Shown here one piece after another: positions 554-35,477 of a DNA stretch of 35,747 nt. The notes beneath the pieces are model-generated. The model did no database searches, was not told the DNA's origin, and saw only the letters and a program-made list of their open reading frames with translations. The translations under genes were made by a program, and so were the position numbers. Source of the stretch: Pseudovirgaria hyperparasitica (taxonomy: Eukaryota); NCBI GenBank assembly GCA_010093815.1, contig ML996598.1. One strand, given 5' to 3'. Position 1 is the stretch's first letter. Each line of letters begins with the position of its first letter.

Positions 554-1276
554 GTAATACTATATATACTACTATCGGTACCTAGAAAGCTATAAGACTA
601 ATCTATAAACTCTAAAGATAGTAACTTTAAAAGCCTTAGAAGTACCTTAGATATAGAGGATATAGATCTCGATTATAAAGAGTAATAGAATAATAAAAAG
701 GGTGCTAGGGGTAGTAAGAGTAGCGCGCGTGTTTAGCTAAGGTAATATAATACTAATATAAGATAGGTTCTACCTATAGTATATTAGTATATACCTAATT
801 CTACTAGCTATATAACTATAGCGTATATATTTAATTAAGATATTAATACACCGGTATAAGCCGGCGTCTATCTATTTTATATTAGTATACGCCCGGTTCT
901 ACTAGCTATATTATTACTATGATTATATTTATATAAGATCTATACTAATAATCGAATATTAACTTATATACTTTACTTCCTCTATACTTTATAAAATTAT
1001 ATTATAATTAGTAAACGCGGTAACTTAACCTCTACCGCCTAAATATAGTTTTTAACTCTTATTACTACTAACTCTATCTTATTATCTATAACCTAAGTTA
1101 TATATAGGAATATATAAGTATAGCGAGAGTCACGACCGTTCTAGCTTAACTACTAGCTATAGAATAGCTAACTATAATATATATATATGACGTATAGAGG
1201 CCTTAAGTATTAGCGCCTTTCTACCGTATATCTAGTACCTCTAAGGCCTATACTAACTACCTAAAATAAGTTATAG

Positions 1277-4084
1277 TATATATAGAGATACTATTATTAA
1301 GATAGCACGCGGAAAAGTATTATAAGAGCTTAAAAATAGTAGTATAGATACTACTATACTTATTAGAATAGTTAAGGAAACCATTACTAAAGAATTTAAT
1401 TAGTATATTACGGCTATAGATAGTAAGTTAGTACTAATAGTTACGGCTATAGATATAACGGAGGCTAAACTAGATATAGATATACTAGCTATAGATATAT
1501 AGTTATAGTTACTATTAGAATATAAAGAGAAAGAGAATATAGAAGATACTAAAATGGAAGACGACGTAATAAGTATACTTAGATACATATATATACTTAG
1601 TACTAGATACTAATATTAGAGTAGTATTAAAGATAGATGCGGCTATAATTACTAACTTAGATAATCTCTCTATAAGTACCGTCGTGTCTAGTAAAGCTTA
1701 TATACGTGTAAATATACTAGCTATAGATATATAGTTATAGTTACCGTTAGAATATAAAGAGAAAGAGAATATAGAAGATACTAAAATAGAAGATAACGTA
1801 ATAAGTATACTTAGATATATATATATACTTAGTACTAGATACTAATATTAGAGTAGTATTAAAGATAGATACGGCTATACTTACCGACTTAGATAATCCC
1901 TCTATAAGTACCGTTATATCTAGCAAAGCTTATACACGCGTAAATATACTAGCTATAGATATATAGTTATAGTTACTATCGGAATATAAAGAGAAAGTAG
2001 TTATAGAAGATACTAAAATAGAAGATAATATAATAAGTATACTTAGATATATATATATATACTTAGTACTAGATACTAATATTAGAGTAGTATTAAAGAT
2101 AGGTATAGCTATACTTACCGACTTAGATAATCCCTCTATAAGTACTATCGTACCTAGCGAAGCTTATACACGCATAAATATACTAGCTATAGATATATAG
2201 TTATAGTTACCGTTAGAATATAAAGAGAAAGTAGTTATAGAAGATACTAAAATAGAAGATAACGTAATAAGTATACTTAGATATATATATATACTTGGTA
2301 CTAGATACTAATATTAGAGTAGTATTAAAGATAGATATAGCTATAATTACCAACTTAGATAATTATATAATAAGTACTATTATACCTAGCGAAGCTTATA
2401 TACACGTAAATATACTAGCTATAGATATATAATTATAGTCGCTATTAGAATATAAAGAGAAAGTAGTTATAGAAGATACTAAAATAGAAGATAACGTAAT
2501 AAGTATACTTAGATATATATATATACTTAGTACTAGATACTAATATTAGAGTAGTATTAAAGATAGATATAGCTATAATTACTAACTTAGATAATTATAT
2601 AACGGATACTATCGTGCCTCTAGATACTAGTAAAGCTTATCTATAGTTACTAGTAGTAAAGAGGATACTCTCGAATAATATAGTAAACCCTATAGATTCT
2701 TCTAAACGCTTAAAACTAGAATATAGTATATTACTAGATATCGACTAGTAGATACTTAAGTACTAGAATCTAATTAGGTTAATAGACGATTTATATAGTA
2801 GAAATATATTAGATATATTAGATAATATATTAGTAGATAATATTACCTTTATTATCTATTCCCTAGGTAATAAGCCTAATAAAGATAAAGTAAAACTAGA
2901 TATAGATAACGATCTTCCGGTAGATAATAACCTTAGTATAAAACTTTAGAAAGTATAAGTTATACTAAGTAGCGAGTAGAAATATATACTACTATACTAA
3001 TATATCTATAGAGTATTCGCCGTTAATAACTCCGATAAAGTAATCTAAGCTATCTCTTATTATATAGAAGAGATATAGTTACTTACTACGAGTATATTTA
3101 GACTTATACTAGATAATCTAATAAAGGACTTCGGCTATATACCTATTCTATATCTAGCCTTTAGTATAAGTAGATTATATAGACTATAGGCCGGCTAATT
3201 ACTCGCGGTAGTTACTATATTTAAGTAGTAGACGGGTCTATAGAACTACTAGATCTTAGTAGATAGCCTAGGGCTAGAGAAGACTATTATACTTATAACG
3301 TTCATCTACCTTATATTCTATTAGGACTTTCTACACGATAATATAGAACTATATCTAGAAAAGTACCTACTACTAACTTAAGACCTACGTATAGATAGAA
3401 AGTACCCGATATAATCTCTATATCCAATTAAATATCTATATAGCTAGACTAATAAATTTAGCGAGGTGCCCCGCCTCTAAGAACTATTTATACTATACTA
3501 TCTAAGGAACCTCCTAGTATTATATTAGCTATAGCGTTTTAACTAGATATACTATAATATAGATAGTATATTCGCTAATAAAATTAATAAATAGAACCTA
3601 ATAAAGATAGTAGTACGGTTAGCGTACTCGAAAACCCTTCTTAACGCCTCTAATATCTAATAACTCTCGTCTATAGATATATACTACCTGGCTAAGAGGT
3701 GCCCTAATCCCGAATAGGAATATTATAATAATATTAGTAATTCTACGAAATACGAGACCGGTAAGAAGTATATTACTAAGGAGTAGTCGATTCGCGTTAA
3801 TAAGACCGCTACTATTAAATTTCTATTATAATACGCGAAGAATAATATAGTCTATACTACCGTCTAAAGTATAGAGACCTAATATATTATAAACTTTACT
3901 AGACGCGTGGTTCTAAAAGAGAAGAAGGCGAAAAAATTTAGCGCTAATATTATTTAAATCTATAATATAGTATTTATCGGTATATTTATAGTAGACAAGT
4001 TCTATACCTTAAAAAAACCTATAATAAAATAGTATAGGTATACGCGACTCAATCCCTTTATATTTAGTATATAGATTAGTATAA
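1277..4084 (+). pseudogene. SNF2-family (SF2) ATPase/helicase pseudogene, 5' part (repetitive N-terminus, motifs I-III); start uncertain
   Basis: One frame carries motif I ATC TTA GTA GAT AGC CTA GGG CTA GAG AAG ACT (3253-3285, de-RIP ILADSPGL[E/G]KT), motif II GTA GAC AAG TTC TAT (3991-4005, de-RIP VDEFH) and the start of motif III (4078-4084). Putative intron 2955-3011. Stops are TAA/TAG, as expected from RIP. Confidence 0.8.
1481..2640 (+). repeat. Five tandem 232-234 bp units, each a 180-nt exon (60-aa acidic repeat) plus a 52-54 nt intron
   Basis: Units start at 1481, 1713, 1945, 2179 and 2411. Putative introns GTATAC...TACTAAT...GAGTAG lie at 1573-1624, 1805-1856, 2037-2090, 2271-2322 and 2503-2554. 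Confidence 0.88.
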
Positions 4085-4559
4085 TATAATAAACCTTCCT
4101 TAATAAGAGTATGGCTTATCCCTAAAGTAGTCCGTTCTATAGAGTGTTCTAGCTTTTCTAAAGGTAAAGGTACTTAGAAGGCTCCGAGAGGTATAAGTAG
4201 GTTTATAATAAGTATTAATAGAGTATAAATAGTAACTAGCTAGTAGGCGAGTAAAGTAGTAATTATATTAGTATAAGTTTAAATTAATTACTATAGAACT
4301 ATCTCTAGAGGTTAGGTCTAAAGGGTCTATATAGTTCTACTAAGGTCCTCTAATTAGAATACTTATTCTAAGTATTTAGTATATTACTTAGAATACTAAT
4401 ATTCTATTTCTAATTACTAGGTAGGCTACTTAGAATACCTATTCTAAGTACCTATGATTAGCTCTCCCTATAGGTATTAGTTTTAGCCTTAGATTATTAT
4501 CTAAGGTTACCTATCGTATTATAGGCACCTCTTCTATATATTATACTATTTCTTATACT

Positions 4560-4799
4560 TATAAGGATTGTAGACGTAGGATAGTAGTCTAACAGGTCAT
4601 AGGAGGATTCGGGAATATATTTAAAAGGGTAGTCTACTCTTCTAACGAGGTTGATTCCTAAAGAGTAGGAATTAAGTGTGTGCGGCCTACTTATATAGTG
4701 GTCTTGCTTATTCTAGCTAACTTACCCTAGGTCCACCTATCACGGACCGTACTAGACCATAGTATTCTAGTTAAGTCTATTCTAGTGTTAGCCCTAATA
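4560..4799 (-). repeat. 3' LTR of element A
   Basis: Direct repeat of 12188-12427. The PPT complement TCCTTCTTCTTTTT follows at about 4803-4816. Confidence 0.95.
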
Positions 4800-5060
4800 A
4801 TATCCTTCTTCTTTTTATGCTTCGCCCCGAAGTACTTAGCTATATATAAATCTATAATTCTATAAGCGTCATGTTTATACGCGCATCCAATTAAATCTAT
4901 ATAACGTTATCGATAGTCTTTGTATCGGTAAACTTAAGCTCTAGTTTACTTTTATTTATACACACGCTCATCCCTTACTTTATAGCTACTACCTTAGAGA
5001 TAGCTCCGCGGGTTATATAACCGCTATATTAACTAAGCTTATATTTAGTTCTCTTATTCT

Positions 5061-5225
5061 NNNNNNNNNNNNNNNNNNNNNNNNNNNNNNNNNNNNNNNN
5101 NNNNNNNNNNNNNNNNNNNNNNNNNNNNNNNNNNNNNNNNNNNNNNNNNNNNNNNNNNNNNNNNNNNNNNNNNNNNNNNNNNNNNNNNNNNNNNNNNNNN
5201 NNNNNNNNNNNNNNNNNNNNNNNNN
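5061..5225. other. Assembly gap (N run) within element A
   Basis: Run of N characters. Confidence 1.
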
Positions 5226-6448
5226 ATACCGGCTAAAAAATCCACTTATTATAGTAGTATAAAGGCGCGCTCTAAGTTAGAGAAGAAGGTAGCTAAGGCT
5301 ACTACTACTATTACTACTAACGTGGCCACTAGTCGCTCTAATCTAGGTAATCCTAGTACTAGTGTTACGGAAGAGGTAGCTATAAAGCCTATCTATATCT
5401 ACTCGCGCCGCCTATCTACTCTATCTCCTTTAGAGGATAAAGAAGATCTTATTATAGATAATAATCGAGAGTTCACGCCTTCGCCGCCTCGCTCTAAACG
5501 CCGTTCCTCTTTTTAGTCTAATATAGACTAACTTAGTTACTCTAGGTTCTTTTAGGACCTTAATATTTACTCTAAACCTAGCTCTAGTAATAATAAGATC
5601 TAGGTCGCCGAAGATACTAAACGTAGTCGCGGTTTACGCTATAGAAAAACGGCGAACTACGGTTTAATATACTTTAAGTATATTAAGGCTTATACTACCG
5701 GCTCTAAATATCTCTTCTACTCTAACTCTAGTATTAGCTACTATTCTACTAACCGTAACGGGCCTATACGCCTAATCTTTAAGCTCTCTACCCGCTGCCG
5801 CCGCTATACTATAACTAGTAAGACTTATCTATAGATAAGTATAATAGGCTATCTTAATCTAGTATAATCTAAAGTAGTTCACGTTAATATATTCTTAGGT
5901 TCCTATGCGTATATAAGATATATATAACGACCTTCGCATCCGCGAGACCCTTAGAGGTCCTTATAGCTATCTACCTACTATATAGAGAGAGTTTAGGGAG
6001 CGCTATAAGCTCTTTCTAGAGGTTATTAAAGTATAAGTTATAAGTATGTTAATTATTTTTAACATCTATTGATTTTTCTAGCCGCCGCGAGATCTCTAGT
6101 ACCTAGGCTACCTATTCTAGGGAGTCTATTCTAGCTATGGAGGCCGTAGAGAGGATTCGCTCTATCCCCCTCTATCTATCTCGCGCTACTAACGGATCTC
6201 GTAAGAGGTCTACTATTTCTCCCTCTAAGTCGCCTCGTAAGAGGGTATATATTCTATTCTAGATTATTCTAGACCGCGTTAGCTAACTTTAGGTCTAGTT
6301 ACTCCGCTCTAGCGCTTAGTTATCGTCTTACTAGGCTCTAACCGAGCGCGTGGTTACTCTAGAGAATAAGGTCTCTAACCTCCGTCGCTCTATTACTCGG
6401 TTAGTTCGTTCGCTACGCTCTAAGAGTAATAATAAGATAGAGAAGTAG
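5226..6448 (+). pseudogene. Antisense accessory gene of element A: basic/Ser-rich N-terminus, Cys cluster, C-terminal coiled coil; probably spliced
   Basis: The frame from ATA CCG GCT AAA AAA (de-RIP MPAKK) includes track ORF 5322-5516. De-RIP CFKC...C...C...RCRRC-x6-C at 5670-5828. Intron-like segments at about 5835-5877 and ending 6081. LTERVVTLENKVSNLRRSITRLVRSLR before the stop at 6448. Confidence 0.62.
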
Positions 6449-6841
6449 CTCTATGGCTCTGTTTACTAGGGTTTCTATATAGTATATATTGGCTCTATCT
6501 ACCTGGTTTCTATTCGTTTTAGTCCTTTTTAGACCGTTTAGATACCTATCTACTAGTTTTCTAGTAATTTAATTCTTAACTTAATAATATTATATGCATT
6601 CTTATTTATTCTATAACTATTGAATTTTAGGTTCTAATTTCCTTTAAGTTACTTAAGTATAGGTATCATATATAAATTAGTTTATCTCTCTAAATTATAT
6701 TAGAGCACCTAAACTAGTAGCCTAGTGGTTATTAGTTCGGGTACTCTAACCTTTTATATTATATATTACGAGTTCAATTCCGTAGTAGGGTACCTTTTTA
6801 GTTTCTTAGTCCTATGTTCTTCTCGTGTATAATGGTCTATA

Positions 6842-9800
6842 TTAGTCTATTCTAGACTTCTCTATATTATTCTATTATAATATATCGCGTCGCGTGCCTA
6901 TAACGGTTATTTACGTTTTCTTCGCGTTTAGTAACTATATATCGCTTAAATTATAGGGCTGCCTTATAGAGTTTTTCTAGTATGCGTTTAGAATTCGTAA
7001 TTCGATACTTCATTCTCTATGGTATCCTTCTTCTTTTTACGACGGCCCCGACGGCGCTAGGTTTACGGTAGTAACGTATTATTCTATAACCTCTATTTAT
7101 ATATAGCTATCGCGGTACTTAAGATATATACTATAGGTTCCTAGATATTCTTATCCTTAGTGTAGTTCTTCTAACGGATTCGATACTTTTAGACACCGTT
7201 CTTGTCAAGCCTATATTCGATAATATAGTCTACTTCGTATACGTCTAGTCTATCTTAGGGTATAATAGAGTATAATTACACGTTCATGCGTTTATATATG
7301 TTAGGTCGAAACCTTTTAAGTAATAAGACGTGGAATACGTTATAGACTTTTATATTATTTCCTAGGTTAAGCTCGTAGACTCTTATAGCGATACGACGTT
7401 TAATTCGGAAGGGACTAGCCATTTTATAATCGAGCTTTTTATTTACTTACGATGTTTATATATTATGGATGTTAAGGAGGATCTTGTCTCCCTCCTTGTA
7501 CGCTTAATCTTTAACTAACCTATTATAGTACTTTATATATAACTTATTCGCTTACTAGATTATTACGTAATAGTTACGTGCGGTTTTAAAGATTTTAATC
7601 GTTAGTTCCTACGCGTGGACGTTAACATCTATCGTTCGGTCGAACTAGACTATATAAGGTTTGAAACCTATCCTTAGACTATATTCTAGGTTTACCTAGA
7701 AGGGCGTAATACCTATTATACTATAACGACTATTATTATACGCGAATTCTACTATGCTTAGTAGAGAGGCCTAGTCGTCTTATTCGAAATTATAGAATGC
7801 ACGAAGGTAGGCCTTAAGCGTTTAGTTCTATCGCTCTATCTAACCATCTATTTATAGATAGAATACTATTAACATGTTTCTATTTATACCGGCTATTTTG
7901 TAGAATAACATCTAGAATTTAGACGTGAATATACTCCCTCGGTCTATAACGATCCTTTTTAGTATACTATAGACCTTAATAATCTTATTCTAGAATACTT
8001 ATACTAGTTCTTTTAATATGATTATCTTCTATATAGGGACGTACCTAGATATCTTTATAAGTCTATCTACGATAATAAGAATTAAATTATAACTTATCCT
8101 AAGCATCTTACTTAGAGGTAAGTTAACTATAAAATCTATAGTAATATCTTCCTATATAAAGAGGGGGACTAGTAGAGGCTGTAAGTTCCTATATAGCTTA
8201 TGCCTAGGTACCTTTATTCTTTAATAAATCGGATAAGTAGCTATCTATTCTTCGACGTACTTAGGTATATCTTTCTAAAAATAGTACTAACGAATTAAGC
8301 TTAGGGTATATATATACCCGAAATATCCTACTAGGTTAGCGTTATAGTATCGGCTAACTATAGTAAATCGTGCGTTACCCGTCGGTATATAGTACTTTCT
8401 ATCGTAGTAGAGTAAGCCGTCTATAAAGGTCTACTTATAGTCTATTTCGGTCTATAATAACCTATCTTACTATATTTTACATAACTTTAAAACTATCGGG
8501 TCTATCTTTTATAGATCCACGATTAACTAGGCGAGGTCTACTTAATATATACGCCGGGTACTATCGCCCTCCCTAATAGCGCCGATAAATAGCTCGCTAG
8601 GGACTTTGGTACCGTGTCTTTAGTTACCGGCTTTAGTCTTATAAATTTAATTACCGGTATCGGCGTTAGTATCTCGCTAATCGTCGGATAACTTATTATC
8701 TAACCTCGTCCTTAAGAGTTAGGCCTATAGCTACTCTAGGACCCTATAGCTACTATAATCCTAGGCGCCTTCTTTATAGTTAGGTCTTCTTAATATTCTA
8801 TTAGCTAGGTTTATACTTCTAGATCGATGGCAGATTATAAAGTAGAAATTTATAAGCTACTTAGTCTATTAAACCTATTAACGATTTAAAACCGTTATAC
8901 TTATAAACCCCTTTAAGTTATAGTAATTAGTTAGTAACTTAACGTCATGTATAGTACCTTTAAGATAATATTACTACTACTTAAACGACTCTACTATTAC
9001 TAGTAGCTCTTAGTTATAAATAGTATATCTAGTCTTGATGTTAGCTATCTTACGCGAGAAGAACGTAACTAGATACTATTAGACCTTTTTAGACTCTATT
9101 AGTCTAGGCTAGGAGAGTATACCCGAGATTGTAAATCCTAATATATTAGTTTTAACGCGAATAGATTTAGTTAGATCGAAGTATACTAGTAATAGGGCGG
9201 TTATAAATGCTTCTTTAATCTTCTCGAAGGATGTTCTTTTAACCTTAGTTAATTTAATAGATTATGATTCGATATTACGCTGTTTCTGTCCACCACGGAC
9301 CGTAATAGATAAGTCGGTAGTAGTAGTACGCGTATTAAGTAGTGCGGCTAAACGGGAGAAGTACTTAACGAATTTTCGGTAGTAATTAGCGAATCTAATA
9401 AAGACACGTATATCTCGAACCAATTTTAGTTTAGGCCAGTCTACGATAGTAGCGACTCTATCCCTTTCTATGGTTATACCTTAATTAGTAATAACGAAGC
9501 TAAGGAAGTTAATATGGTCCTGGTGGAACTTGCATTTGGATAGCTTAATATATAGCTTATGTTTTTCTAGCCTATCTAGGACTGCGTGTACGTGCTAGAT
9601 GTGTTCTTCTTTATTATTAGAGAAGATAAGAATGTTATCGAGGTATATGATGCACGTCATGTCGAGTAGGTCTACTAGCGCGTTATTAATGTACGCTTAG
9701 AAGGTTCCTAGCGCATTAGTTAGTCTAAAAGGGACTACTATGTACTCGAAGTATCTATAACGGGTCCTAAACGCCGTTTTCTACTTATCGCCCTTCTTAA

Positions 9801-10770
9801 TATATAGGCGGTAGTAGGCGTCGCGTAGATCGAGCTTAGTAAAGATCTTCGTACGCCCTAGTCTATTAATAGACTCGGAGATAAGAGGTAGTAGGTAACG
9901 ATTCTTTCGCGTGATATTATTTAGGCTATAGTAGTCGATATATAGATAGAGACTCCTATCCTTCTTCTTTATAAAGAGGATTAGAGCTTCGGCTAGGGAT
10001 ATACTAGGCCTAATCTATCCTCGCGTAAGGTTCTTTTTAATATATTCTCGGAGGACCTATAGTTCGGGTTCTAATAGAGGGTAGATAGGTCCGTGTGGGG
10101 GTTATTAACCGTTTTCGAGGTTAATAGTAAGGTTAGTAGGTTAGTATTAAGGTAATTCGGACGAGTCGATCGCTAACGCGATATGTTAGTATATTTTATA
10201 CTAATATAGTAGGTTTTCGTCCACTTTAATACTAAGCTCTCTATTTTAAGTAAGTAAGAGGACATAGATAGCGGAGATTGCCTTTTCGTAGTCCTTCTAG
10301 AATTATTCGTCATCGACTAGCTATACTAGGTTCTATTATAGTAGATATATACGCCAGCCAGCTGTTTTCTAGATAAAGTCTAGTTTCGGGTTATATTTTT
10401 CAAGCTACAGTATACCGAGAATCATATTAAAGAGACTATCTACCACGATAAAGGTTAAGTAGTAGGGTTTCCACTTCCCCCCGCTATCCTAGATACCGTA
10501 TTTAATAATATAGGTACTCTACGATTTAATGGGACTATCGATACCATAGAAGATAGTACCTATTAGTACTTAAATATCAACGTTAAGTTCTCATACTCAT
10601 TAAGTTAACATAACGTTAGTAGCTAAACCGCTATTAAGTATTACAGTCTAATATTATCCACGAGGGACCTCAATAGGTCTAGCCTATAGTTTAATATACT
10701 ATTTAGCGGATTATCCCTCTATTATAGTCGCGCCTATAAGTTATAAGGGTTTCTCGTAGACTATTAGTTT
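6842..10770 (-). pseudogene. pol: pol of element A (protease, RT, RNase H, integrase, chromodomain)
   Basis: Protease LDSG-like motif at about 10625-10645. RT YLD[N/D] at 9634-9645. RNase H TDASG-like motif near 9140. Integrase GQTER-like motif near 7835. Chromodomain YRIRWKNY...WEP at about 7135-7190. Confidence 0.92.
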
Positions 10771-12146: not shown

Positions 12147-12187
12147 TTCTATAAACTACCGTCGTGCTATATAAAGAGGAATTAAAA

Positions 12188-12427
12188 TATAAGGATTATA
12201 GACGTAGAATAGTAGTCTAATAGGTCATAGGAGGATTTAGGAATATATTTAAAAGGGTAGTCTACTCTTCTAACGAGGTTAATTTCTAAAGAGTAGGAAT
12301 TAAGTGTATGCGGCCTACTTATATAGTAGTCTCGCTTATTCTAGCTAACTTACCCTAGGTCCACCTATCACGGACCGTACTAGACCATAGTATTCTAGTT
12401 GAGTCTATCCTGGTGTTAGCCCTAACA
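12188..12427 (-). repeat. 5' LTR of element A
   Basis: Begins TGTTAGGG on the minus strand. Direct repeat of 4560-4799. Confidence 0.95.
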
Positions 12428-21297: not shown

Positions 21298-24203
21298 TAA
21301 CCTCCGTACCTATACGTGCTACCTAAGGGTAAAATAACGGTAATATAGGCTATAGGCTAATAGGTGTACCCTATGGCTATATACTTAAGAAGAAATAAAG
21401 GTTTAACGAGATGTAATTATCGACATAAGGAAGTTTTCCCCTCTTAGGTTTCTTCTTATATAGTAGCTTAGACTAGAGGAGGCATAGGCCTATAGAGTAC
21501 TACTCTACCTAGTTATACAATATTATTATTATTATTATAGTATTCCTAGGATTAAGTTATATTATCCTAGCTCCGCTATATCTAGTTATAACTATTAGTA
21601 TTCTACTATTAAGACTAAATCTAGAGGTTCTATTTCTAAGTATACTATCCCGTTAGTATATTCTATATTAAGTCCTTTAAATATAGATAGTTTATATAGT
21701 TCTTCTTTACTATTATAGGGTATTTTTAGTTTATCTACTATAGTTAGAGAGATAAAATTAGACTATACTCCGCTATTAATTAGTACTTTAATAGAGTATT
21801 TTTAATAGAGCTAAATTTTAAGAGATATTTATATTTCGTCGTCTAAGCTACTAATAGATATAAGAGATTTTCTTTTTAGCTTAGCTATTTCTCTTAGGGT
21901 ATCCGGCCTTCCTAGTTCTTTTATAGCTTACTAAGTTCTTATTCCGTTTCTTATATAAGTTAGATTATAGATTAAACTTATTTCTTAATTTCGCCTAAGT
22001 CTACTTAAAGGTTATACTATATAATAGTCTTAGATATTAAATAAGTTCGGCATATAACGTCTAGGTATTAGATATATTAATTCTCTAGGTAAATCTTATT
22101 TTCTATCTATTTTAATATAAAGTAGTTTTTATTAGCTTCCTTAGTAATTATTTTATACTATTATATATCTTTATCTCTAAAGGCTTTTAGAATTACTTAA
22201 TTTTAATACTATTATAGAAACTATTTCTAGGTTCGCTTCTCGTAGAGATAGTAAAGATAGTTATTATAGATATAAGTAACCTAGGAAGTCTTACCGGATT
22301 CCTCGTGGTAGAGTAAAATAAGTTAGTTATCTTCTAATTAGATTTCTACGCTTCTCCTAGATAGGTCTCTATTATTCTTATCTATATACTTTCGATAGTA
22401 ATAGATAATATAGTAAGTAATAGGGTCTTATATTATTATTAACTTATTATATAGTTCTTCTATAGTAAGGGTTTCTTCCTTACTATCCTTCTCTATAGTA
22501 CTTTCTTTAATTATTACTTCTTTAGATACTATTTCTTTAGTTAGTTTAGGTCTTCTTATTACTTCTAAGTATTTCTATAGTTCTACTTTTTTATAAAGTA
22601 ATAGAGGTTATTTACTAGCTATTAAGACGTTTCTTTTCTTTAGATACTAATCTATACTATCTTTTTCTAACTTATATATAAAATAGAGGTTATTAGTATA
22701 ACTAGTCTATAATATAGCTATATAAGATACTTCTTCCTTTTCTATAGTAAAGTTCCCTTATCTTAGTACCGGGTCTTTAATCTAACTTTTCTTATTTTTA
22801 TTTTTCGGGTATTTGTATATATAGTATCCCTTTTTCTTATAGTAGAGATACTTACCTTCCTTCTTTAGTTACTTCTTTTCTTGATTAGATAGTTATTTTA
22901 TCTATAAGGTACTAAGTTCTATAGGTACGGGTCCGTTATAGAATCTCTTATATAAGTAGTTTAGAGCTTTATTAATATAGCTCTTTCTTATATCTCGTTT
23001 AAGTATAGATTAAAAGACCTTCTTCCCTCTTTTCTTATAGCGTCTCTTATATAGTTAGTTATTAATCTAGACTATAAGCTTAATATACTTCTAGAGGTTA
23101 GTAGAATAGTCTCTCTCTCTAGAGATTTTATTCTTAACGTCGTTATATAATCTAGTATAGAACTAGAGAATTAGGGGTTTATCGTTCTATTCTAGCTAAC
23201 TAGAGATTTATTAGAATTTAGAGGCGTAGTTAGACGCGGATTTTATCTAGACTATTTACTAGATCTATCTCTTAGCTATCTTTTATTTATCTATATCTCT
23301 AAAAGTTATCTTAATATATTCCTTGAATTCTTCGAAGTGTTTAAAGACCTTAGTAGTACTATTCTATTAATTCTATAGATTATTTTCTATAAAGTTTCTT
23401 AAGTAGAGCTTAAACCACGGAAGTATATCTCCCTTTAGTAGTCTAGCGACGAATATAACTTATTCTTCTAGGTTCTAAATTTAATAGGCCTAGAGGTATA
23501 TTCTAATCTATATTAGAAATCCTTAGAGTTCGCTTTGCTTACCTTTAAAAGATTCTAGGATTTTTCTTTTAAAGCTCTTTTTAGCTTTTCTAAGTTTAAT
23601 ATTTTCCCTTTAGAGCTTTATAACTTACTCCCCTAATTTAGTAATAAGGTATTTAACTTATTCTATAGTTAGTACTTATAGAGTAGTTCGTAAAGATAAG
23701 GATTATCTATCTTTTACTATTTTATATTTAAATAGATAGTATAAATACTTACTTTAGAGTCTAAGACAAGTAATTAAACTATAATAAACCTTCCTTAATA
23801 AGGGTATGGCTTATCCCTAAAGTAGTCCGTTCTATAGAGTATTCTAGCTTTTCTAAAGGTAAAGATACTTAGAAGACTCTAAGAGGTATAAGTAGGTTTA
23901 TAATAAGTATTAATAGAGTATAAATAGTAACTAGCTAGTAGGCGAGTAAAGTAGTAATTATATTAGTATAATAATAATATTAGTAAACTAGGTAGAGTAC
24001 CACTCTATAGGCGCATGCCTCCTCTAGTCTAAGCTACTATATAAGAAGAAACCTACGAATAGGAAAAACTCCCTTATATCCATGACTACGCTCTATCTAT
24101 CCTCTCGTTATTTATATATATATAGCCCTAGGGGCTACCTATGGGCCTATAGCCTATGTTATAATAGTTTATCCTTAGGTAGCACGTGTAGGTGCGGAGA
24201 TTA

Positions 24204-27200
24204 TTAGTTAAGGGCTACCCTTAACTAATAATCGCGGTTCTCCCGGGATTCTTCCGACGTATACCAGGGTTCTTCCGGTATATATTAGGCTTCTTCCGGT
24301 ATATATACACGGGTCTACTAGAACTAGGGGAGAGAAAGGTATATAAGCATCTATCGGGCGATATCCTTAGAGTACTTATTAAGCTATCGCGTAATGTTAG
24401 AGGTCCTCGTTATACGGACGAGGGCTTATCTTAGGGTATAGAGGCTAGAGTACGTCGCGAGGTAGTGGTATATTATACCTCTCCGGCCGTAGTCCTCGTA
24501 CTAGAGAGATATATCTAGGACGTCTCTCTAGTAGAGGTAATATAGGAGACCTATAGCGCCTATTTGGGCTTAGAGGAGTATAGATGCTTAGGCCTTCGTT
24601 AGCCCTTTATACATCTATTTACTTAGTTCCTTCTAAGGCCCTTAGATCTATTCTAGATATCTATTCTATTAGGAGGCCCACTAGGCTTTAAGTACCTCCC
24701 TCTATTTATCCTAGATCTACGACCGTATAACGCGGCTAAGCTCCTTAGGGCTCTATTAGCTCGGGATAGTATCCGGGTTATTTCGAACCTCCTACGCGGT
24801 CTAGCTCGAGTCCGCCTCTATATAGTATTTATATTATACTTAAGTTTATCCTATAGTAGGGAGGGTCTAGTAATACGCGTGGATACGTGTACGTAGTATA
24901 GCGAAGGTATATACCCTATCTTCTCCGCGTTCTTATACTTATTATTTAGTAAAGTATATAAGTCTCTATATCTAGTAGAAGTCCTATATACTTATTACGT
25001 TTATCTCGCGTTAGAGAAGCGTCGTGTTAGTAGCTTTATATACACTAGAGATAAGGCGGAGTATACGGTTTTATATAGACTTAAGCTTTACCCGCCGAGC
25101 TTATATAAGGGCCGTGTACTAGTACTCCTATCTATATATAAAGGCTAGGCGTGCTAGGGAGACGTATAGCTGTCTTGCCTTATCCCGGGCTATTCTCTAC
25201 GTAGATGCCGTAATCCGGCGTATAGCGGTTTCTATCTAGAGGGCTCTAGAGACGGCGTGTGCTACCTATGGTCCCTATTTTAGCTTATTATTAATCATGA
25301 CGCCGAGTACTCATATACTCTATACTAGTAGTTCTATAAAGGCGTCGATTTAGGGGCGACGTACCCCCTCCCTAGTAGTCTATCCTCTATAGCGGTTAAT
25401 AAAGTATATAAGCTAGTATTTTTTAGGTGTAAATTTTACTCCGTGGCGCTTTATCTACTAGATATATTTCTCGTGGTCTTATTCGAGTCGTGTATATATT
25501 CTACTAGTACTACTATCGACCGCGAGGAGGTATATATCGTCCGCGTATCTAACTACCTCTATATATTCTATTCCCTAAAGGAGGTCTACTATAAAGAAGA
25601 GGAAGAGAATCAGAGAGATGGTACTCCCTTACGGGATGCCACATACCATCTCCTTATATTCGCTTCGGTATCCGGGGATATATATTTAAGTAGTCCTTTA
25701 CGCGAGAAAGGACTATATAAATCATATAATCTACTTAGGTATTCGCCTTATCCGGAGGTTATAGATAAGTCTTATATAGTTTATCTTATTAAACGCCCCT
25801 ATTATATCTAGGGAGAGTAGCGTAACGACTCGTCCTTATTTCTATGTAGTCTAGATAACCTTAAGGATGTGTTAAATGGCCGTGATTAGGGAGCTTTCTA
25901 CCTTCGCCTTCTGGTTTACTAGGAGAAGGCCGTATACCTATACTACTATACTTATCTTCTTAGTAATCGTAGCTTCTAGTACCTTACTAAGATAGAAGAG
26001 GAGGGCGATCGGCCTCCATCCCTTCGGCGTGTTTAGGCTCTTCCCTAGTTTTAGAAGTATAACCGTGTATACGGTTCGGAAGCTCTATAGGTAGTATCCT
26101 ATACGGGCGCACGCTTAGAATATATGGCCTATAATCGGTAAGGTCGCCTATATAGTCCTCTTAAGGCATTAATTTAGAATTCTATCTAGCCCGGGCGCTT
26201 TATCGTTCGGGAGTGTCTTAATAGTACCGAGTATATTATCGTCCGTGATTTCCCTAGAGATACTTACGGCTTCCGGGTATTCCGTACCGTCGATATCTAA
26301 TAGATCTACGGGTTCTAGGAGAGGGAATATAACCTCTTATAGGATCTCTATTTTCTCGAGGCTCATGGAGTATATCTTTTTGTAATATATAAGAGGGGGT
26401 ATAAGTAGTATAGGTGTTGGGGAGGCGGTGCTTTTAGCCTATTTTACCATATACTATAGTCTAGTAGTATTACGTGTGTGTCTATCTATAACTATATACT
26501 ACTATTTACGTCGCTTATTATAGAGGACCTTATCTCGTTATCTTCTCGCCTCTCTCTATTTATCCTACGCTTTAGGTATACGGTTATAGTATACGTGTAT
26601 ATATAATCTCTAGACTTCTCGCCTATGCTCTCGTACTTAAGGTATACTTTTTAGGTCTAGGGGTCTATACATTCGGTACGGTACGTGTTTATCTCTTACT
26701 CTCTAGTACGCCTATAGGAGTATATTCACGGCCTAGTCGATGGCCGGGCCATTAGATACGTCGACTATAGACGGGTCTAGGATCGTCGATTCTAGGTCCT
26801 TTAGATACTTTTCCTAGTTAGTATCCTTCTATAGCTATCGCCCTCGTTAGTCTTAAGAGGTGGATACGTCTATTACGGTCTCTATATATTCGTGGTCGGA
26901 GTCTATCTATATAAGGCTTAGGCGGTAGTATTAAGTTCTATTATAAATATATCTAGTGGCTAGGGTGAGGTCGAGTGTAGATCCGCCCTTATCTTATTTA
27001 TGTTTTCGCTAGATAATCTATTCTACTAGTATAAGAAGGTATAGAAAGCTATGGTATTAGGTACGTAGTTCTCTAGCTCGAAGCTCTTCGCGGGTAACGG
27101 TTAGTCCACCCTACTAGCTATAATAGAGGTTAAAGTCTCCTAGGAGGATGTGTTATTCTAGCTCGGTAGTGCCCTTAAGCATGTTATCTACCTAAAGCGA

Positions 27201-27527
27201 TCGGTTCTAATTATATATATTATATATATAGAGGGGTCCGATATTCGTCTAGAGGTATAGTATTATCCGGAGGTTATCCCGTTTAGTATATAACTATAAT
27301 AAGAGTAGGATAGACTTATAGATATAGAAGAGAACTCTCCTCTCCGGTCCTAGGGGGTATATTATATAATATCCTAGGTGTGTTATTAGTTTGTTCGTCT
27401 GGTAGTGTTTATATAGCTCCTATATAGTAAGTATTATAGCTCCGGTCTCCTTAAGGAGTATCGCCTAGTTCTTATGTTTATACTATACGTTTACCTATAT
27501 AATTAGGAGTGTATCTTGGTCTCTTAT
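24204..27527 (-). pseudogene. LINE ORF2 (APE + RT)
   Basis: 1108-codon frame. LLGDFNL near 27130-27150, SDH near 26892, GWRPIALL near 26000, GYADD near 25536-25553. Confidence 0.92.
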
Positions 27528-28987
27528 TGGGTGCTAGGGAATATATAGGCCTGTATATTTATTTCTCTAAGACGCGACTATCCTCGTACGGCGGCGGCCT
27601 TAGTAATTCCTTAGGGCCGTCCTATTATTAGCTTTCTCGGGATAGTTTACTATTCCTAACCGCTTCCTCGTAAGGAGGTAGTCTATAGTAGTAGTATTAT
27701 AGTAAAGAGAGGAACGGTAGTAGGTCGTATCGTTTATAGCTACCTTACTCCCTTTATCCGGATTAAGTAGATGTATTTAGTAATCTATTTATGTTTCGCG
27801 CACGTAGCCGACTACGACGGGTACTTACCGTCGTAGTTAGAGTACTTCGCTATATCTCTATCTCTCTAGCCCTTACCTCGTATCCCGTGGGGGTACTCCT
27901 AGGTACTATATTCTTATTAATACCACCTATACCTAGTCTTTTAGGAGTACCGCTATACTATATACCTATATCCCTAATAGTTAAAGCACTATATTATCGC
28001 CTATACTCTATCCTATGGTTCCACTATAAGAAGCTCCCGTTCCGCTAGGAATCCCTCTTACGTAATTCGATACGCGAGGGCGGGGTCCTTAAGCTCTACT
28101 ATTATAGTAGAGTATGCCTTTAATCTGGTTTTAATCCCTTATATATTCTTCTACCATGCTCTTATGATCTTAATCCCTAGGTATTTTCGCTCGTTTAACT
28201 ATTCTATCCGCGTAATATCCTCTTCTCTAATAACCTATCCGCTTATAGATATAGAGTATACCTATATTAGGTATATGGCCGCCCTAATAGAGGCGCCTAG
28301 AAAGATACTACTAATCGCGTTCGGATCGCGCGAGATAGTCTACTACGCGATATTCGTTATCGTGGTAAGTACTACTCCTCCTAGTATAAGTTTAGTAGCG
28401 ATAATATTTAACTATATTCCCTTTTATTCGTTAATCTTACTTACTATATTCTTTAGGGATACTTACTAGACCTATACTAGGGTATCCTTATTCTAGATTG
28501 TGACGTATATACTATACGCCGCGTCGCCGGTCTAGGGGGCCCGTGGTATAGCCTCTGGTGTTACTACTATTTCTACCCATATACTAGGGCGCTTACCTTA
28601 AGTGAGTTCCTCCTAGATTCTATATAGGCTAGCCTCTATTCGGTTAAGCCTACCCTCCGGTCCTCCTAGTTATATCTTCTTCTCCTCCTCTGTAATTCCC
28701 TTTAGGTTCCGGATAAGGTCCTAGAATATATATAGAAGGGTCTTCTAGCCCTCTCCGGCTTCCTTCTCTATATATACTATCTAGTAGTCGATATAATCTA
28801 GGAGGGTTTCCCCTCTTAGGGTCCCCTTTATTCCGTCTATCTATAGCGGCGTGCGCCTTTAGGTATGTTCTACGTTTTAGATAGATATATAGTTACCCTT
28901 AGTAATATCGCTATATGGCCTTTTCTATCGTACTAGTGGGGGTATATCCGGTATATACCGGGGTATGTTAGTGCCTAAGGCCGCCAT
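27524..28987 (-). pseudogene. LINE ORF1 with zinc knuckles
   Basis: ATG GCG GCC at 28987; 488-codon frame. Knuckles at about 27815-27995. Confidence 0.88.
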
Positions 28988-29639
28988 ATTTATTAGTTAA
29001 GGGCTACCCTTAACTAATAAAAGGAGGTCGGCGTATCGGCGTTCTAGTAGCGTGGTCCGTGCCTCTATCTCCGTAAGGATTTTAAGAGGGTATATATATA
29101 TCTTTACACGGCGATAACGTCTTAGTTTCGACGCTACACGTACGTGCGTGTAGTAGTAGTTAGTATACTCGGTATACTCTATTAATTAAGGTGTATATCT
29201 CGCTATATTACCCCGAATGGACCAAGTTAGCCTCTTGGGGATGTAAAAGAAGTTTTATATTTTTTAGTATAGTTTAGCGCCAATTATATTAGTATAAGTT
29301 TAAATTAATTACTATAGAACTATCTCTAGAGGTTAGGTCTAAAGGGTCTATATAGTTCTACTAAGGTCCTCTAATTAGAATACTTATTCTAAGTATTTAG
29401 TACGTTACTTAGAATACTAATATTCTATTTCTAATTACTAGATAGGCTACTTAGAATACCTATTCTAAGTACCTATAATTAGCTCTCCCTATAGGTATCG
29501 GTTTCGGCCTTAGATTATTATCTAAGGTTACCTATCGTATTATAGGCACCTCTTCTATATATTATACTATTTCTTATACTACTTATACTAGAGTCTACGT
29601 ATTCTTCTATGGCTCTAGCTAGTAATTTATTATATATAA

Positions 29640-30997
29640 CGCCTCTCTTAAATAGTCCATTAGATATTCTATTAGCTATTAAAATAGATATCCTAGATTA
29701 GTTACCTAACTACGTTAACGATAATACTACTAAATTAGTATTTAAGAGTATATAGAAGAGATCTATAAGAAAGATAGTTATAACGTGGTTAAATAAACTC
29801 CTCTCTTAAATAAAAAATAAGCCGGCGAAGATAATAGCCGGTATAGTTAGTATAGTATTAGAAACCATAGATAGTAAGTATATACTATATATAGTAGCCG
29901 ATTAGTATTTACTATTTATTCTATAAAGGGGATAACTAAGTAAGTAGTTTAATAGAAAGAACTATCTATCTATAATAGTAACCCTAGTAGTAGATATTAT
30001 ATATATCGCCGCTATAGATATAGAGAAGCGGGTTATATAGTTATACGAGAATAAAGGCCAAAGACTCCTTAAATAAGCTATCGCCTAGGGTAAATTAAAT
30101 AGGCTTAGATATAACACGTACTACTATAAGGCTAGGCTAGCTACTACGTATATACTACTTATATACCTTACTAATAAAAGAATAAGTAAGGAATATATTA
30201 AAATTAGGCTTATACGTCTATTAATAGATAATAATAGTATACTAGATAGGGTAATTATTAATTCTATACGCGAATCGCTCCCCTAGCTAGATAATAGTAT
30301 ACGAAAGAATATAATCTTACTAGCTTTAAAAGGAGTCGCTTTAAAGGTAAACTAGCTCTATAAGCTTATTAATAAAAAGGTTTATAATAAAAATACTAAA
30401 TACGCGCGTCGAACGTTCGCTAACTAACTAGAGAAAATTATAATTATATCTACTATACTAGTAACCATAATATTCCTATATATAGTAAGTATTTATATTA
30501 GTACTTACTAGTAATATAATTTACTAATATATATATAGGTACTACGTTTATACATAAAATTAAAAATATTAGTATATTTACTAGCCGGCCTAAGTACGTC
30601 TAGTATAAATAAGGTATACTAAGATTTTAGATTAAATAAGTTAGATTCTCTATATATTTTACTAGCCTTAGCTTTATAAGTCTATAAGAGATAAGATCTA
30701 ATAGTTACTAGTTATATTATATTAGTAGACTAATATCTATGTAAGAAGATATGGCCGTAGATAAGTATAAGATATTATCGCTATAGATAATATTAGCCTA
30801 TAGTATATATATATACTTTAGTTTTAGACTATTTAGGGGTTAAGAGTAGACTTACTATATTAGGCTAGGTAATTAAAAGTATAAGGAAATAAGCCTTAGA
30901 CCTAGAAAAAGAAGATATATCTATAGTAGCGACGACTATACCCGATATACTAGTATTAGATATATACTTTAGTAATCCTATAGAGATATAGAAGTAA
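29640..30997 (+). pseudogene. SNF2-family pseudogene, 3' part (rest of motif III, motifs IV-VI)
   Basis: Removing element B rejoins AGT ATA ACG CCT CTC TTA AAT AGT CCA TTA GAT (de-RIP SATPL.NSPLD). Motif IV EKI.I.S at 30431. Intron GTAAGT...TACTAAT...TAG at 30485-30538. Motif V G.DL.VASYIVLVD at about 30688-30730. Motif VI Q...RCHR.GQ...V..YTLV at 30758-30823. Confidence 0.82.
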
Positions 30998-31123
30998 GTA
31001 AGGTAGTTAGTTAAGTAGCTTCTAAGAGACTAGATAGTATAGTAGTATAAATACAAACCGCTATTTACTCGTAATTATATATCTATATATATCTATATAT
31101 AAAGAGAAATAAGATATTTATTC

Positions 31124-31336
31124 TATACCGGTATATAGTAGGACATTACTATATATACCGGTATATAATAGAATATTCCAATATACGCCGGTATATTATA
31201 GAATATTTCTAGATACTTAAAATATAGTTATAATATAAAGTAGTATCGCTATTATATGCTGGTATATAGTAGAATATTACTATATATACTAGTATATAAC
31301 GGGATATTCTAATATGCGCCGGTATATAACGGGATT
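31124..31336. repeat. Two blocks of three 30-bp repeats with palindromic core TATACCGGTATA
   Basis: Cores at 31128, 31158, 31188 and 31259, 31289, 31319. Confidence 0.8.
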
Positions 31337-31358
31337 AAACATTTTCTTAATATTTAAT

Positions 31359-31530
31359 AGGATAATTCTAGAAGAACCGGGATAGCTCTAGAAGAACTAG
31401 GATAACTCTAGGAGGACTAGGATAACTTAAGAAGTACTAGAATAACTCTAGAAGGAATAGGATAACTCTAGAAGTACCGGGACCCATTTAGAATAACTTT
31501 AGAAGTACCGGAAGACCTAGAAGTACTAGG
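31359..31530. repeat. 20-bp minisatellite (consensus about GGATAACTCTAGAAGTACCG), about 8 degenerate units
   Basis: Visible 20-nt periodicity over 31359-31482, decaying afterwards. Confidence 0.85.
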
Positions 31531-31559
31531 AGCGCCGTATCTTTCCTAATGTAGCTTAC

Positions 31560-33360
31560 GACTAGTTATTTCAGAGTTTCTAAGCGCCTCTAGAAGTCTA
31601 GTAAAGTATATATAATAGATCTTACTCTAGTTTTACTACTACTAGGTAAGGTAATTTCCCTAGATTAATGTCTATACGTCTATTATAATCTTATAGAATA
31701 GATATCTAGCGTAGAGTACTAGGTTAAGAGAATTAGATTAGTACTATAGAAAGTAATTCTACTATATCTACTAGCTAACATGCTTCTACTTATATCTATA
31801 ACGGCTAAGCTAAGATCTACGCCTAGTAGTAATATTTTAGACTAGAGTCTACTTATCTTTAATAGTATAACTACTATAACTATAACTACCACGACTATAA
31901 TTACTATAATTATAACTACTATAACTACGACCACGACCTCTCTCTAGAATAGCTATAATCTACTTACGGCGGTCTATATCTTAAGGATAATAGAGATTCT
32001 AGTATATAGGGTAGTTCTAGTTCTACCCTAGCGACCTATATAGAAAGAGTAGTAGAAAGTATATTAGAAGATATATTATATAGAGGTTACTTATCTAGCG
32101 TAGAGTACTATCTATATATTAGAGTATAATATTATACTACTCTATAACTAGCTTACTCTATAGCCTAACTAGAAGGAGTCTAGTAATCTTATTATAGTTT
32201 AGTATATTCTATCTCCTTAGGTCGTGGTCGTGGTCTTTAATAATACTAATACTAAGACTAAGGGTAGGCTAGTCGCGTAGTATTTACGCGTTCATACGAA
32301 ATATCTAGATAAACGGGTTTATATAATAGAGAACCTCCTTAATACGCTATAGAATATTATTATAGAGATTATAGAATATAGCATGACATAGCCTACCCTA
32401 CTTAGTCTAGTTATTATAGATATATAGCTATATATACTTTAGATCGTTATAGTTTAGTTATAGATTACTTATAAAATAGAGAAGCTTACCCTTTATAACT
32501 AGAGTATACACGCCTTAATAGCTATTCCTTAGAAGAGTATTCTATAGTATACTATTCTTAATATTAATCTTTATAGAAATAAATAATACTAACTAGTTAT
32601 AGTATTATATACTCTATCGGAACTTCTCTATTATATAGTTCTAAATAGTAGTACTATTCCGGGTCTATTATATCTATAAGAGAAGCTAGTATAAGACTAG
32701 AGGATATTTAGATAGTACTAGAATCTATACTTTACTATTACCATAGTAAGGTATCTAAATCTCTCTATTTACTCTTATTACTAGAACCTCTTTACGCTAG
32801 AAGAGGGTATTATAGAATCTATATATTATACTTAGACGGTGGAGAATATACTAAAAGTTACTTATAATAGAGTAGATAATATAGGTATATAGGGTAGCTA
32901 GCCTATATTTATTATAGTAGATATCTATTATATAGTATAGTACTTAATCCTTTACTACTTCGCGACGCTAACGTATAGATATTTAGTATATCTAGAATTA
33001 ACGTTATAGTATCTACTAGAGGGGGTCTAAGAAAGACTTCTAATTATAATATAACTCTTAGCGTAGGGTACGAAGTATATATTACTAAGATAGTAACTCT
33101 AGCCTTATAATATACTCTATCTAAGAACGACTTTATAATATTTACTAGAGAGTATCTAAGAAAGAGTTCTAGTTATAACACGACTACTAGTAAGGGATAG
33201 GCGGTATCTATTATTAAGATAGCGATTTCTATATTATAACGATTCGACTCTCTCTACGTAAACGACTTTATAGTATCTACTATAGAGGGTCTAGAAAAGA
33301 GTCTTTCTCTATAACTAAAGGTAGCTATTATAGAGTAAGTATTAGTTCTAACTATAGTAT
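31560..33360 (-). pseudogene. Helitron Rep/Hel protein N-terminal fragment, truncated before the HUH nuclease and Pif1 helicase; may extend to about 33860
   Basis: One frame carries de-RIP C.FC.ALFW.EE (32788-32823), CCGNGKV.IP (near 32735), FR.SI.YYN, KYAQLYIYD (near 32420), NPFIQIFR (near 32300), DPRRWN.P...EIA, RDI.L, PLLFPHG.PGW (32023-32060) and LF..IVVDAW..I...RL....NQ (31627-31700). Confidence 0.85.
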
Positions 33361-34253
33361 AGAAGGAGTTCTAAACACGTTATCTAGTAGGTATTTATCT
33401 ATTATAATACTTACTAATCTATCTATAGAACTATCTATTATCTAAGACTATCGTAGATTAAATTAAATTAGCTTTTAAATAGATTAAGGTCTAGCTAGCT
33501 ATATACTAAAGAGAGTGCGCCGTAGTATATATAGAAGGCTATTAGCGTAATATAGGGTTATTTAGAGGGTATTTAGATTACTTATAATATAGTAGAATAA
33601 TAATTAGAAGGTATTATAGAGTTAGTAATAATATTAGTAGCTCTAGCTCTTAAGATATAACTATTATAGAGGACGGGGTATAAAGGGAATAATAGTTTAA
33701 TATTATGGAGAACTAGAGGGAAGGAGTTAGCGTGTATCTAGCTGTAAAGAGGCTACTTAGAAGAATATAAGTAGAAATTAGTATAGAGTATTCTAATCTA
33801 TTATAGAGCTAGCGCTACTAAGGGAGACTAGTAGGGAGGGTAATATACGTTACTACTACTATCGTATATTTTAAATCTTTAGACTCTTTTTCTTTATTTA
33901 TAGTAGTATAATAATATATTATAGAGAGAGAATAGAAGAGGGAATAGAAGAGAAAAAGATAATAATAAGAAGCCTTAGATATACTAGAAAATTAATAGTC
34001 CGCGCCGCTAAGGGCTATAGATTTTTTACCTACTACTAAACGTAATACTAGAGGCTTATAACTAGAACTCGTCTACGACGCCGCGCCTATAAGTTATAAA
34101 AAGTATATAGAATTACTTAGGGTAGCTAGGAGCACGATTTATCGGAATAGATTTTTAATTAAGGGCGTGGTTAATTTATTATAAGGGAAAAGGTAGTTTT
34201 TTAGTCGTGGTTTTAGTAAGGACGCTAGCGGGAACTTGTATCTTTTTATAAGA
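31560..34253 (-). mobile_element. 5' portion of a Helitron-like element; candidate 5' TC terminus at 34253
   Basis: Helitron protein motifs are present. The minus strand reads ...GGAA|TCTTATAAAAAGA where Copia RT homology begins, fitting the 5'-TC and A|T target rule. The boundary is inferred. Confidence 0.55.
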
Positions 34254-35474: not shown

Positions 35475-35477
35475 AGG

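Follow-up and report, generated by a model that had tools for sequence, protein, structure and literature searches.

What kind of DNA was split in two when a Ty3/Gypsy retrotransposon inserted in contig ML996598.1 of Pseudovirgaria hyperparasitica (assembly GCA_010093815.1)? We analysed a stretch of 35,747 nucleotides of this contig, which we call the window, where the retrotransposon (element B) separates two arms that together form a unit of about 8.1 kb (554-4084 plus 29640-~34250), adjoining a 5'-truncated Copia element. A preliminary description of this DNA had proposed a large Helitron-derived element carrying a gene for a SNF2-family ATPase. We think, with a probability of about 0.5, that the region is a fragmentary copy of an unclassified low-copy repeat family, inactivated by repeat-induced point mutation (RIP). 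The unit likely includes a real, dead P-loop ATPase gene. A SNF2-like identity is our best guess for this pseudogene, and falls short of established family membership.

The anatomy of the unit, as first described, proved real and precise: once element B is removed, the two arms make up one stretch of about 8.1 kb. Element B is flanked by a 5-bp target-site duplication (TSD), TATAA, at 4080-4084 and 29635-29639. Its boundaries had been placed at 4084/29640, which is right to within one to five bases (4085-29634, with the TATAA duplication and split long terminal repeats, LTRs). The excision dictated by the TSD joins 4084 exactly to 29640, and the coding-like frame +1 of the left arm then continues into frame +2 of the window via a rebuilt codon, A/CG. 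Stops number 58 in the 882 codons of the joined frame (2599-4084 plus 29640-30799), all of them TAA or TAG; the other two plus-strand frames have 127 and 119. The antisense frame is equally open (56 stops in 881 codons). The same signature, with one frame open on the sense strand and one on the antisense strand, was found in the open reading frames (ORFs) of the Copia element (19 stops in 400 codons) and of the Gypsy element (103 in 1254). The ATPase-like ORF may start further upstream, since excision of 4 × 232 bp (1 mod 3) from a tandem array would join frame +3 to frame +1. Its length is 882 codons or more, and probably exceeds 1,150. The 232-bp array itself sits within this probable ORF.

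Motifs were searched with a RIP-aware reading, in which each codon stands for the set of residues that it could encode before C>T and G>A changes. The motifs I, II, and III of the N-terminal lobe were found in order in this reading only. Motif I is unique among approximately 71,000 codon positions (0.00 expected, 20 shuffles). Motif II, a Walker B of the DExH type, follows it after 244 residues, and the (S)(A)TPLLN of motif III comes 30 residues after motif II, straddling the insertion site of element B. The chain D..G[LM]GKT, DE[AGCS]H..[KR], [ST][GA]TP..N occurs once in the window and in none of 3000 codon shuffles (~1.6e-4 expected). When the motif-I block of Escherichia coli RapA was compared with all 71,282 positions, the best match was motif I of the ATPase-like ORF. 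The consensus of 30 bacterial SNF2 cores reads DDMGLGKT, DEAQVIKN, and TGTPLEN, i.e., it has the same three signatures. Such an arrangement most closely matches the N-terminal lobe of a SNF2-type ATPase of helicase superfamily 2 (SF2). The ORF resembles Snf2-family ATPases in having D..GLGKT, DE(S)H..K, and (S)(A)TP..N in this order, with spacings of 244 and 30 residues. A long spacing between motifs I and II is a feature of the Rad5/16-like Snf2 group. Unlike these ATPases, the ORF has no match to PF00176, PF00271, or a SNF2 protein, and its C-lobe motifs IV-VI are not confidently recognisable. Unlike housekeeping Snf2 remodellers, it belongs to a unit that is multicopy and RIPed. Of the SNF2 gene first proposed on the plus strand, a coding-like frame with RIP-aware motifs I-III stood up to analysis, whereas profile and homology support did not materialise.

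The whole window bears the marks of RIP, and the unit is no exception. All of the 36 one-kb bins are RIP-like, with TpA/ApT ratios of 1.36-2.05 and (CpA+TpG)/(ApC+GpT) ratios of 0.04-0.32. The latter ratio is 0.06-0.15 in 554-4084, among the most extreme values of the window, which bears out the claim that the unit is as RIPed as the transposons around it. The unit would have been hit by RIP because it was repeated.

Several results weigh against a SNF2-like ATPase encoded in a repeated unit, concerning both the identity of the protein and the number of its copies. The motif patterns were fixed after the ORF had been seen, i.e., post hoc. A generic chain of Walker A, DExH, and SAT motifs arises in 850 of 2000 shuffles, and the Walker A of the ORF can equally be de-RIPed to GGPGLGKT, of the AAA or kinase type. 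Motifs IV-VI had no RIP-aware match in the ORF at one mismatch or fewer, and inspection by hand was ambiguous. The blocks of the SNF2 profile for the C-lobe motifs rank between 7th and 136th and have no collinear order, and the top matches of the RapA blocks II, III, V, and VI lie elsewhere in the window. Homology searches with the ORF were blank throughout. No Pfam family matched at E ≤ 0.01, nor at E ≤ 10 (PF00176 and PF00271 included), and PADLOC and NCBIfam gave no matches. Searches of the PDB with phmmer found nothing at E ≤ 1 or E ≤ 10, word-indexed protein searches gave no match among the 1786 and 4866 candidates scored, and phmmer against 1,835,955,588 representative proteins gave none at E ≤ 0.001. 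RIP alone does not explain this silence, since the equally RIPed element B (GC 0.23-0.26) still gives Pfam E-values from 1e-15 to 7e-8. Hence, a canonical SNF2 protein should have shown. The RIP-aware log-odds model was validated on the Copia of the window, which scored 388 half-bits against a plant Copia (z = 83). Pairwise scoring of the ORF against RapA gave z-scores of 0.3-2.0, not above those of PolB. With the RIP-aware profile of the 30 bacterial SNF2 cores, the ORF frame scored 47.4 and shuffles 37.1 ± 4.6 (maximum 50.5), and the best alignment in that frame misses the motif positions. Placed in the correct register, the motif blocks scored 12.9, 18.3, and 0.7 half-bits, below the chance maxima of the window (24-31). 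In controls with simulated RIP, members of the SNF2 family scored 482-909 and the distant RapA only 42-54 (against 27-38). Hence, a remote SNF2 protein could escape the profile test. At most, the ORF would thus encode a divergent P-loop ATPase of SNF2-like or SF2 type, and this example marks a limit of the RIP-aware reading of motifs, which can point to a family with no profile to confirm it.

The number of copies was studied by aligning contigs assembled from two runs (X1 and X2) to 27000-35747 at ≥80% likeness. The two runs come from one sample, which is possibly the source of the window, and this also weakens the case, as do the following two points: contig depth is not equal to copy number, and none of the listed contig pieces lies inside the ORF half at 29640-30500. 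The contigs listed are a part of the total (483 loose-end rows and 11,678 pieces lie beyond them), and stretches with no listed piece prove nothing. The word shares of the right arm are 0.59 and 0.58 in the two runs. An exact contig of 165 bp has a depth of 230, and places covered by a single contig have depths of 231-774. The depths listed for the right arm are 3964 in 11 contigs (at 30750), 2003 (at 32140), and 1510 in four contigs (at 32907). Paralogous pieces over 31334-34183 carry 20-39 differences per 164-289 bp, i.e., they are 10-17% divergent. Over the whole of 27000-35747 there are 640 transitions and 54 transversions in X1, and 668 and 59 in X2. Other, rearranged copies exist, as shown by contig forms with foreign joints: one form runs from 31295 straight to 32421, the only listed case in which sections of the right arm are linked in a further copy, and a second form lacks 33672-33761 and 33813-34095 (joining 33812 to 34096). 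The claim that the unit is multicopy therefore stood for the right arm, which is present in several copies that differ almost only by transitions (640 against 54 in X1). For the ATPase-like ORF it is unproven, and rests solely on summed bin depths of 2548-6022. That the ORF and the region downstream form one mobile element is likewise unproven. At position 30750 the window has a T, where all 11 contigs of X1 have a C, as have five contigs of X2 with 2832 of a summed depth of 3068. Either the letter of the window is an assembly error or the contig carrying it was filtered out.

Two readings would make the unit a transposon of a described kind. In the one proposed at the outset, it is a large Helitron-derived element, with the SNF2 gene as cargo or as part of a new system in which a Rep-less N-terminal domain of the Helitron type is paired with a divergent SF2 ATPase. 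The right arm is indeed multicopy, the Copia is broken inside its reverse transcriptase (RT), as expected of an insertion into it, and a minus-strand frame with few stops (33200-34250, 22 stops in 350 codons) adjoins the Copia junction. This frame is all that was found of the supposed Helitron N-terminal ORF. Its phase is that of the frame lying antisense to the Copia ORF, and it extends right up to the junction; both points count against the Helitron reading. Pfam scans covered the six frames of both arms except two plus-strand frames of 29640-30500. Neither Helitron_like_N (PF14214) nor PIF1 (PF05970) had a match on the minus strand of 29579-34260 (E ≤ 0.1), in three frames of 33509-34260 even at E ≤ 10, on the plus strand of 30501-34303, or on either strand of 554-4084. 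The RIP-aware patterns for the HUH, tyrosine, Rep, and Pif1 motifs occurred at about the rate expected by chance over six frames: none for the long HUH motif, four for the short one (4.6 expected), one for the paired tyrosines Y..KY..K (0.7 expected), placed inside element B at 22377-22400, and three for the Pif1 Walker A (1.6 expected), all outside the arms. Rep motif 1 was at or below chance, with no match plausibly placed. The candidate HUH sequence RRGLLIF.YI was rejected, since neither of the two histidines can be recovered from it even by reading it RIP-aware. The TC reported at the junction is a mere dinucleotide (34255-34256) that is expected by chance and has no evidential value. Helitrons end in 5'-TC and 3'-CTRR with a subterminal hairpin and insert between A and T without a TSD, and a TC alone is uninformative. 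The unit is thus like Helitrons (RepHel) only in being a repeated unit beside a broken retrotransposon. It differs from them in having no Helitron_like_N, HUH, tyrosine, or Pif1 signal, and its ATPase motifs are of the SF2/SNF2 type, not of the superfamily 1 Pif1 type. Nothing ties the unit to Helitrons, an affinity that is not supported and that we regard as very improbable. In the literature searched, we found no report of a Helitron or a Starship carrying a SNF2 gene. The other reading takes the ORF for the SF2 helicase of a DNA transposon like AcademH or KolobokH, with the transposase and the ends outside the window or degraded. Elements of this kind have a DDE transposase besides a DEAD/Helicase_C helicase, terminal inverted repeats, and a TSD of 9-10 bp. 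The reading is improbable too. The Walker A context of DEAD/DExH helicases is A.TGSGKT, unlike the SNF2-type D..GLGKT of the ORF, and the ORF has no Pfam match to DEAD, ResIII, Helicase_C, or a transposase. It does fit that the ORF is long, with SF2-like motifs and several hundred codons further upstream, and that it lies in a low-copy repeat. AcademH and KolobokH are low-copy families of helicase-bearing fungal DNA transposons, combining SF2 helicases of the DEAD/Helicase_C type with mobility functions, and are the nearest described concept in the literature searched (PMC10799480, PMC10045372). The likeness is that of low-copy fungal repeats encoding a SF2 helicase; the unit departs from it in lacking a DEAD or Helicase_C match and a detected transposase.

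Two further readings do without a mobile ATPase gene. The ORF may be a cellular gene for a SNF2-like or P-loop ATPase, caught in a passively duplicated block (segmental or subtelomeric) and then destroyed by RIP. The copy equivalents are few, approximately 3-9 at 32140-33813 if a depth of ~231 stands for one copy, the Pfam scans found no transposase, integrase, RT, or Rep in either arm, and comparison of the arms revealed no terminal repeats common to them, be they terminal inverted repeats or LTR-like. All this speaks for passive duplication. Yet, a conserved cellular SNF2 subfamily would unusually, even when RIPed, have no relative among 1.84 billion representatives or in the PDB, the RIPed genes of Gypsy and Copia remain detectable, and the other copies have internal deletions and replacements (31295 to 32421, 33812 to 34096) typical of decaying repeats. 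We consider this origin unlikely, if far from negligible. It may also be that there is no ATPase gene, and that the chain of motifs and the frame with few stops arose by chance in AT-rich, RIPed, non-coding repeat DNA. The searches for homologues and with profiles were all blank, the motif blocks are under the chance maxima in the objective RIP-aware profile, the patterns were chosen post hoc, and the antisense frame is just as open as the sense frame (56 stops in 881 codons). Chance is rather unlikely all the same: the specific chain was absent from all 3000 shuffles, the frame is kept across an exactly excised insertion of 25.5 kb, stops are depleted approximately two-fold in these 882 codons, a depletion also seen in the proven ORFs, and motif I is the single best match to motif I of RapA among 71,282 positions. 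Our preferred reading, a RIP-inactivated copy of a low-copy repeat family, accommodates either a self-moving or a passively copied unit.

More specifically, the unit could be the relic of an undescribed fungal mobile or selfish family, the signature of which would be a large and highly divergent SNF2-like ATPase with no detectable relative in 1.84 billion representatives; we hold this to be distinctly unlikely. If true, the family would be the counterpart, with a remodeller motor, of the helicase-bearing AcademH and KolobokH transposons. Intact copies that pair a SNF2-like motor with mobility functions would reveal a new class of accessory enzymes for eukaryotic transposons, and would bear on why the helicase and remodeller domains of fungi are often fused to transposon-derived domains. 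As it stands, the unit adds another unclassified repeat, killed by RIP, to a transposon graveyard, and is a modest curiosity. The value of the analysis is mostly one of annotation, i.e., the exact nesting order, the TSDs, and a dead ATPase ORF missed by standard tools.

The features show an order of events. A 232-bp piece upstream of the ATPase core was amplified in tandem. A Ty3/Gypsy element, whose insertion is marked by the TATAA duplication, entered between motifs II and III; into it, a second Gypsy and two LINE-like elements (long interspersed nuclear elements) inserted later. The unit was cut at 553/554 by another Gypsy, and on the right it is joined to an internally truncated Copia. As differences that are transitions only show, RIP followed these events and acted on all parts. 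It would have targeted the unit if, as we infer, this was repeated. The coordinates are given in Table 1.

Table 1. Features of the window, in order of position.
Feature	Position	Strand	Remarks
Second copy of the G1 Gypsy family, 3' part	1..553	+	Inverted relative to G1; internal DNA 1-315, LTR 316-553; body left of the window
Left arm of the unit	554..4084	+	Degenerate upstream ORF, 232-bp tandem array, ATPase-like ORF (N-terminal half)
Probable upstream continuation of the ORF	705..1711	+	Frame +3; 25 stops in 335 codons (other plus-strand frames: 41 and 45)
Tandem array, 232-bp unit × 4.8	1477..2602		Tandem Repeats Finder score 1795-1858, 90-92% matches; 232 is not divisible by 3
N-terminal half of the ATPase-like ORF	2599..4084	+	Frame +1; holds motifs I and II
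Walker A/motif I	3253-3288	+	ILVDSLGLEKT; RIP-aware ILADSLGLGKT
Walker B/motif II	3985-4017	+	FIVDKFYTLKK; VDKFY..K readable as DESH..K
Motif III, first half (S-I-T...)	4078..4084	+	Thr codon A/CG split by element B; continues at 29640-29653 (..TPLLN)
Element B, Ty3/Gypsy LTR retrotransposon with nested inserts	4085..29634	-	Split LTRs of ~530 bp
G1, second Ty3/Gypsy, within the left LTR of element B	4560..12425	-	Complete; 238-bp LTRs 4560-4797 and 12188-12425
LINE-like element 1	16256..21548	+	In the internal region of element B; ends approximate; RVT_1 1.7e-16
LINE-like element 2	23972..29281	-	In the right LTR of element B; RVT_1 8.7e-16
C-terminal half of the ATPase-like ORF	29640..30799	+	Window frame +2; motifs IV-VI not confidently recognisable
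Rest of the right arm	30800..34250		Non-coding-looking; minisatellites, palindromic stretch, minus-strand frame with few stops 33200-34250
5'-truncated Ty1/Copia fragment	34251..35747	+	RT and RNase H part only; to or near the window end

The rest of the unit is poor in recognisable features. Pfam families were absent from both strands of the left arm (554-4084) and of 30800-34250. Neighbouring units of the 232-bp array differ almost only by transitions (17 of 18 and eight of eight differences), and the array hence predates at least part of the RIP. The 232-bp unit is weakly similar to 30927-31049 in the right arm (72-73%, E-values from 4e-4 to 5e-3). The minisatellites of the preliminary description are present: besides the array of 4.8 units of 232 bp (1480-2595), the right arm has arrays of 10, 30, 30, and 20 bp at 31076-31474, one at 31866-31928, and 2.3 units of 129 bp at 33004-33302. 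A palindromic stretch lies at 31084-31329, where 31121-31329 pairs with its own reverse complement (~70% over 212 bp) and is built of 30-bp repeats. Reads or contigs are apparently cut near it, at 31071-31112. On the left, the unit breaks off at 553/554, where the LTR of another Gypsy ends, and its continuation beyond 554, as first proposed, is therefore plausible.

Element B and G1 have paired LTRs, 5-bp TSDs, the order RT-RNase H-integrase, and a chromodomain, as is expected of Ty3/Gypsy elements; the Pfam match to the chromodomain itself was found in element B only, and that to SH3_Tf2-1 in both. The left LTR of element B consists of 4085-4559 and 12431-~12484, and the right LTR of 23780-23971 and 29282-29634. 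The halves are 96.9% and 97.3% identical, with transitions at all 14 differences. On the minus strand, 12491-16254 matched RT_RNaseH_2 (1.1e-15), SH3_Tf2-1 (2.5e-11), RVT_1 (6.7e-9), and Chromo (7.4e-8), and 21549-23779 (minus strand) is presumed to be the gag/protease part of the element. G1 is flanked by the TSD ATACT (4555-4559 and 12426-12430) and matched RVT_1 (2.1e-22), RT_RNaseH_2 (5.5e-13), and SH3_Tf2-1 (7.5e-10). Its LTRs also differ by transitions only (14 of 14), which makes 28 of 28 with element B. The rve integrase core had no Pfam match in either element, though SH3_Tf2-1 and Chromo were matched. The Gypsy at the left edge of the window belongs to the G1 family: in the self-comparison, 53-553 matches 5060-4560 (94.2% over 501 bp), and 311-553 matches 12430-12188. 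The end point is identical in all three LTR copies of the family, and the LTR of the left-edge copy stops exactly at 553, beside a putative TSD half, GTAAT, at 554-558. The two LINE-like elements are 71.6% identical over 5367 columns. The second one is flanked by a 16-bp TSD, AATTATATTAGTATAA (23956-23971 and 29282-29297), and the first one matched Exo_endo_phos_2 below the threshold (2e-5, 24.8 bits for a cut-off of 27.4 bits). Both have a GC content of ~0.40 and are far less AT-rich than the Gypsy that hosts them (0.23-0.26).

Mosaics of nested, RIP-degraded transposons are known from the AT-rich regions of ascomycete genomes. The window is alike in its nested insertions of Gypsy, LINE, and Copia elements with clean TSDs, its GC content (0.23-0.42 per kb, i.e., AT-rich throughout the 35.7 kb), its extreme RIP indices, and the transition-only divergence between its repeats. 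The surroundings of the unit are no different from such mosaics, and only the unclassified, ATPase-bearing unit departs from them. Just three stop-free stretches of at least 120 codons are present in the window, and one of them is an artefact: a run of 165 Ns at 5061-5225, inside G1 directly past its left LTR and maybe an assembly gap or a withheld stretch, creates a false ORF of 155 codons at 5049-5516.

The Copia fragment at the right end matched RVT_2 with an E-value of 6.8e-25 over profile positions 49-236 of 244, and is 45% identical to one reference polyprotein (P0001). All of the 14 Copia polyproteins compared by tblastn gave one match each and align only from their own residues 632-1036 onward. 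The start of the fragment was placed at 34251-34263 by 13 of them and at 34113 by one; the latter was rejected as a weak, gapped upstream tail. The half Copia RT reported at the junction is therefore confirmed (RVT_2 6.8e-25, start at 34251-34263). With the 14 polyproteins, tblastn found no Copia gag, protease, or integrase in the window, from which Copia LTRs are absent too, and the 826-908 N-terminal residues of three references gave nothing above shuffles in RIP-aware scoring of 30800-34262 (18 comparisons, six frames each). These negative results agree with the earlier claim that the 5' half of the Copia is absent from the window. No loose end or joint was found at the Copia junction among those listed. 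Summed contig depth peaks in the last bin (35468-35747), where it far exceeds that of all other bins (431,667 in X1), and hence a very high-copy repeat begins near the right end of the window, past the RNase H of the Copia.

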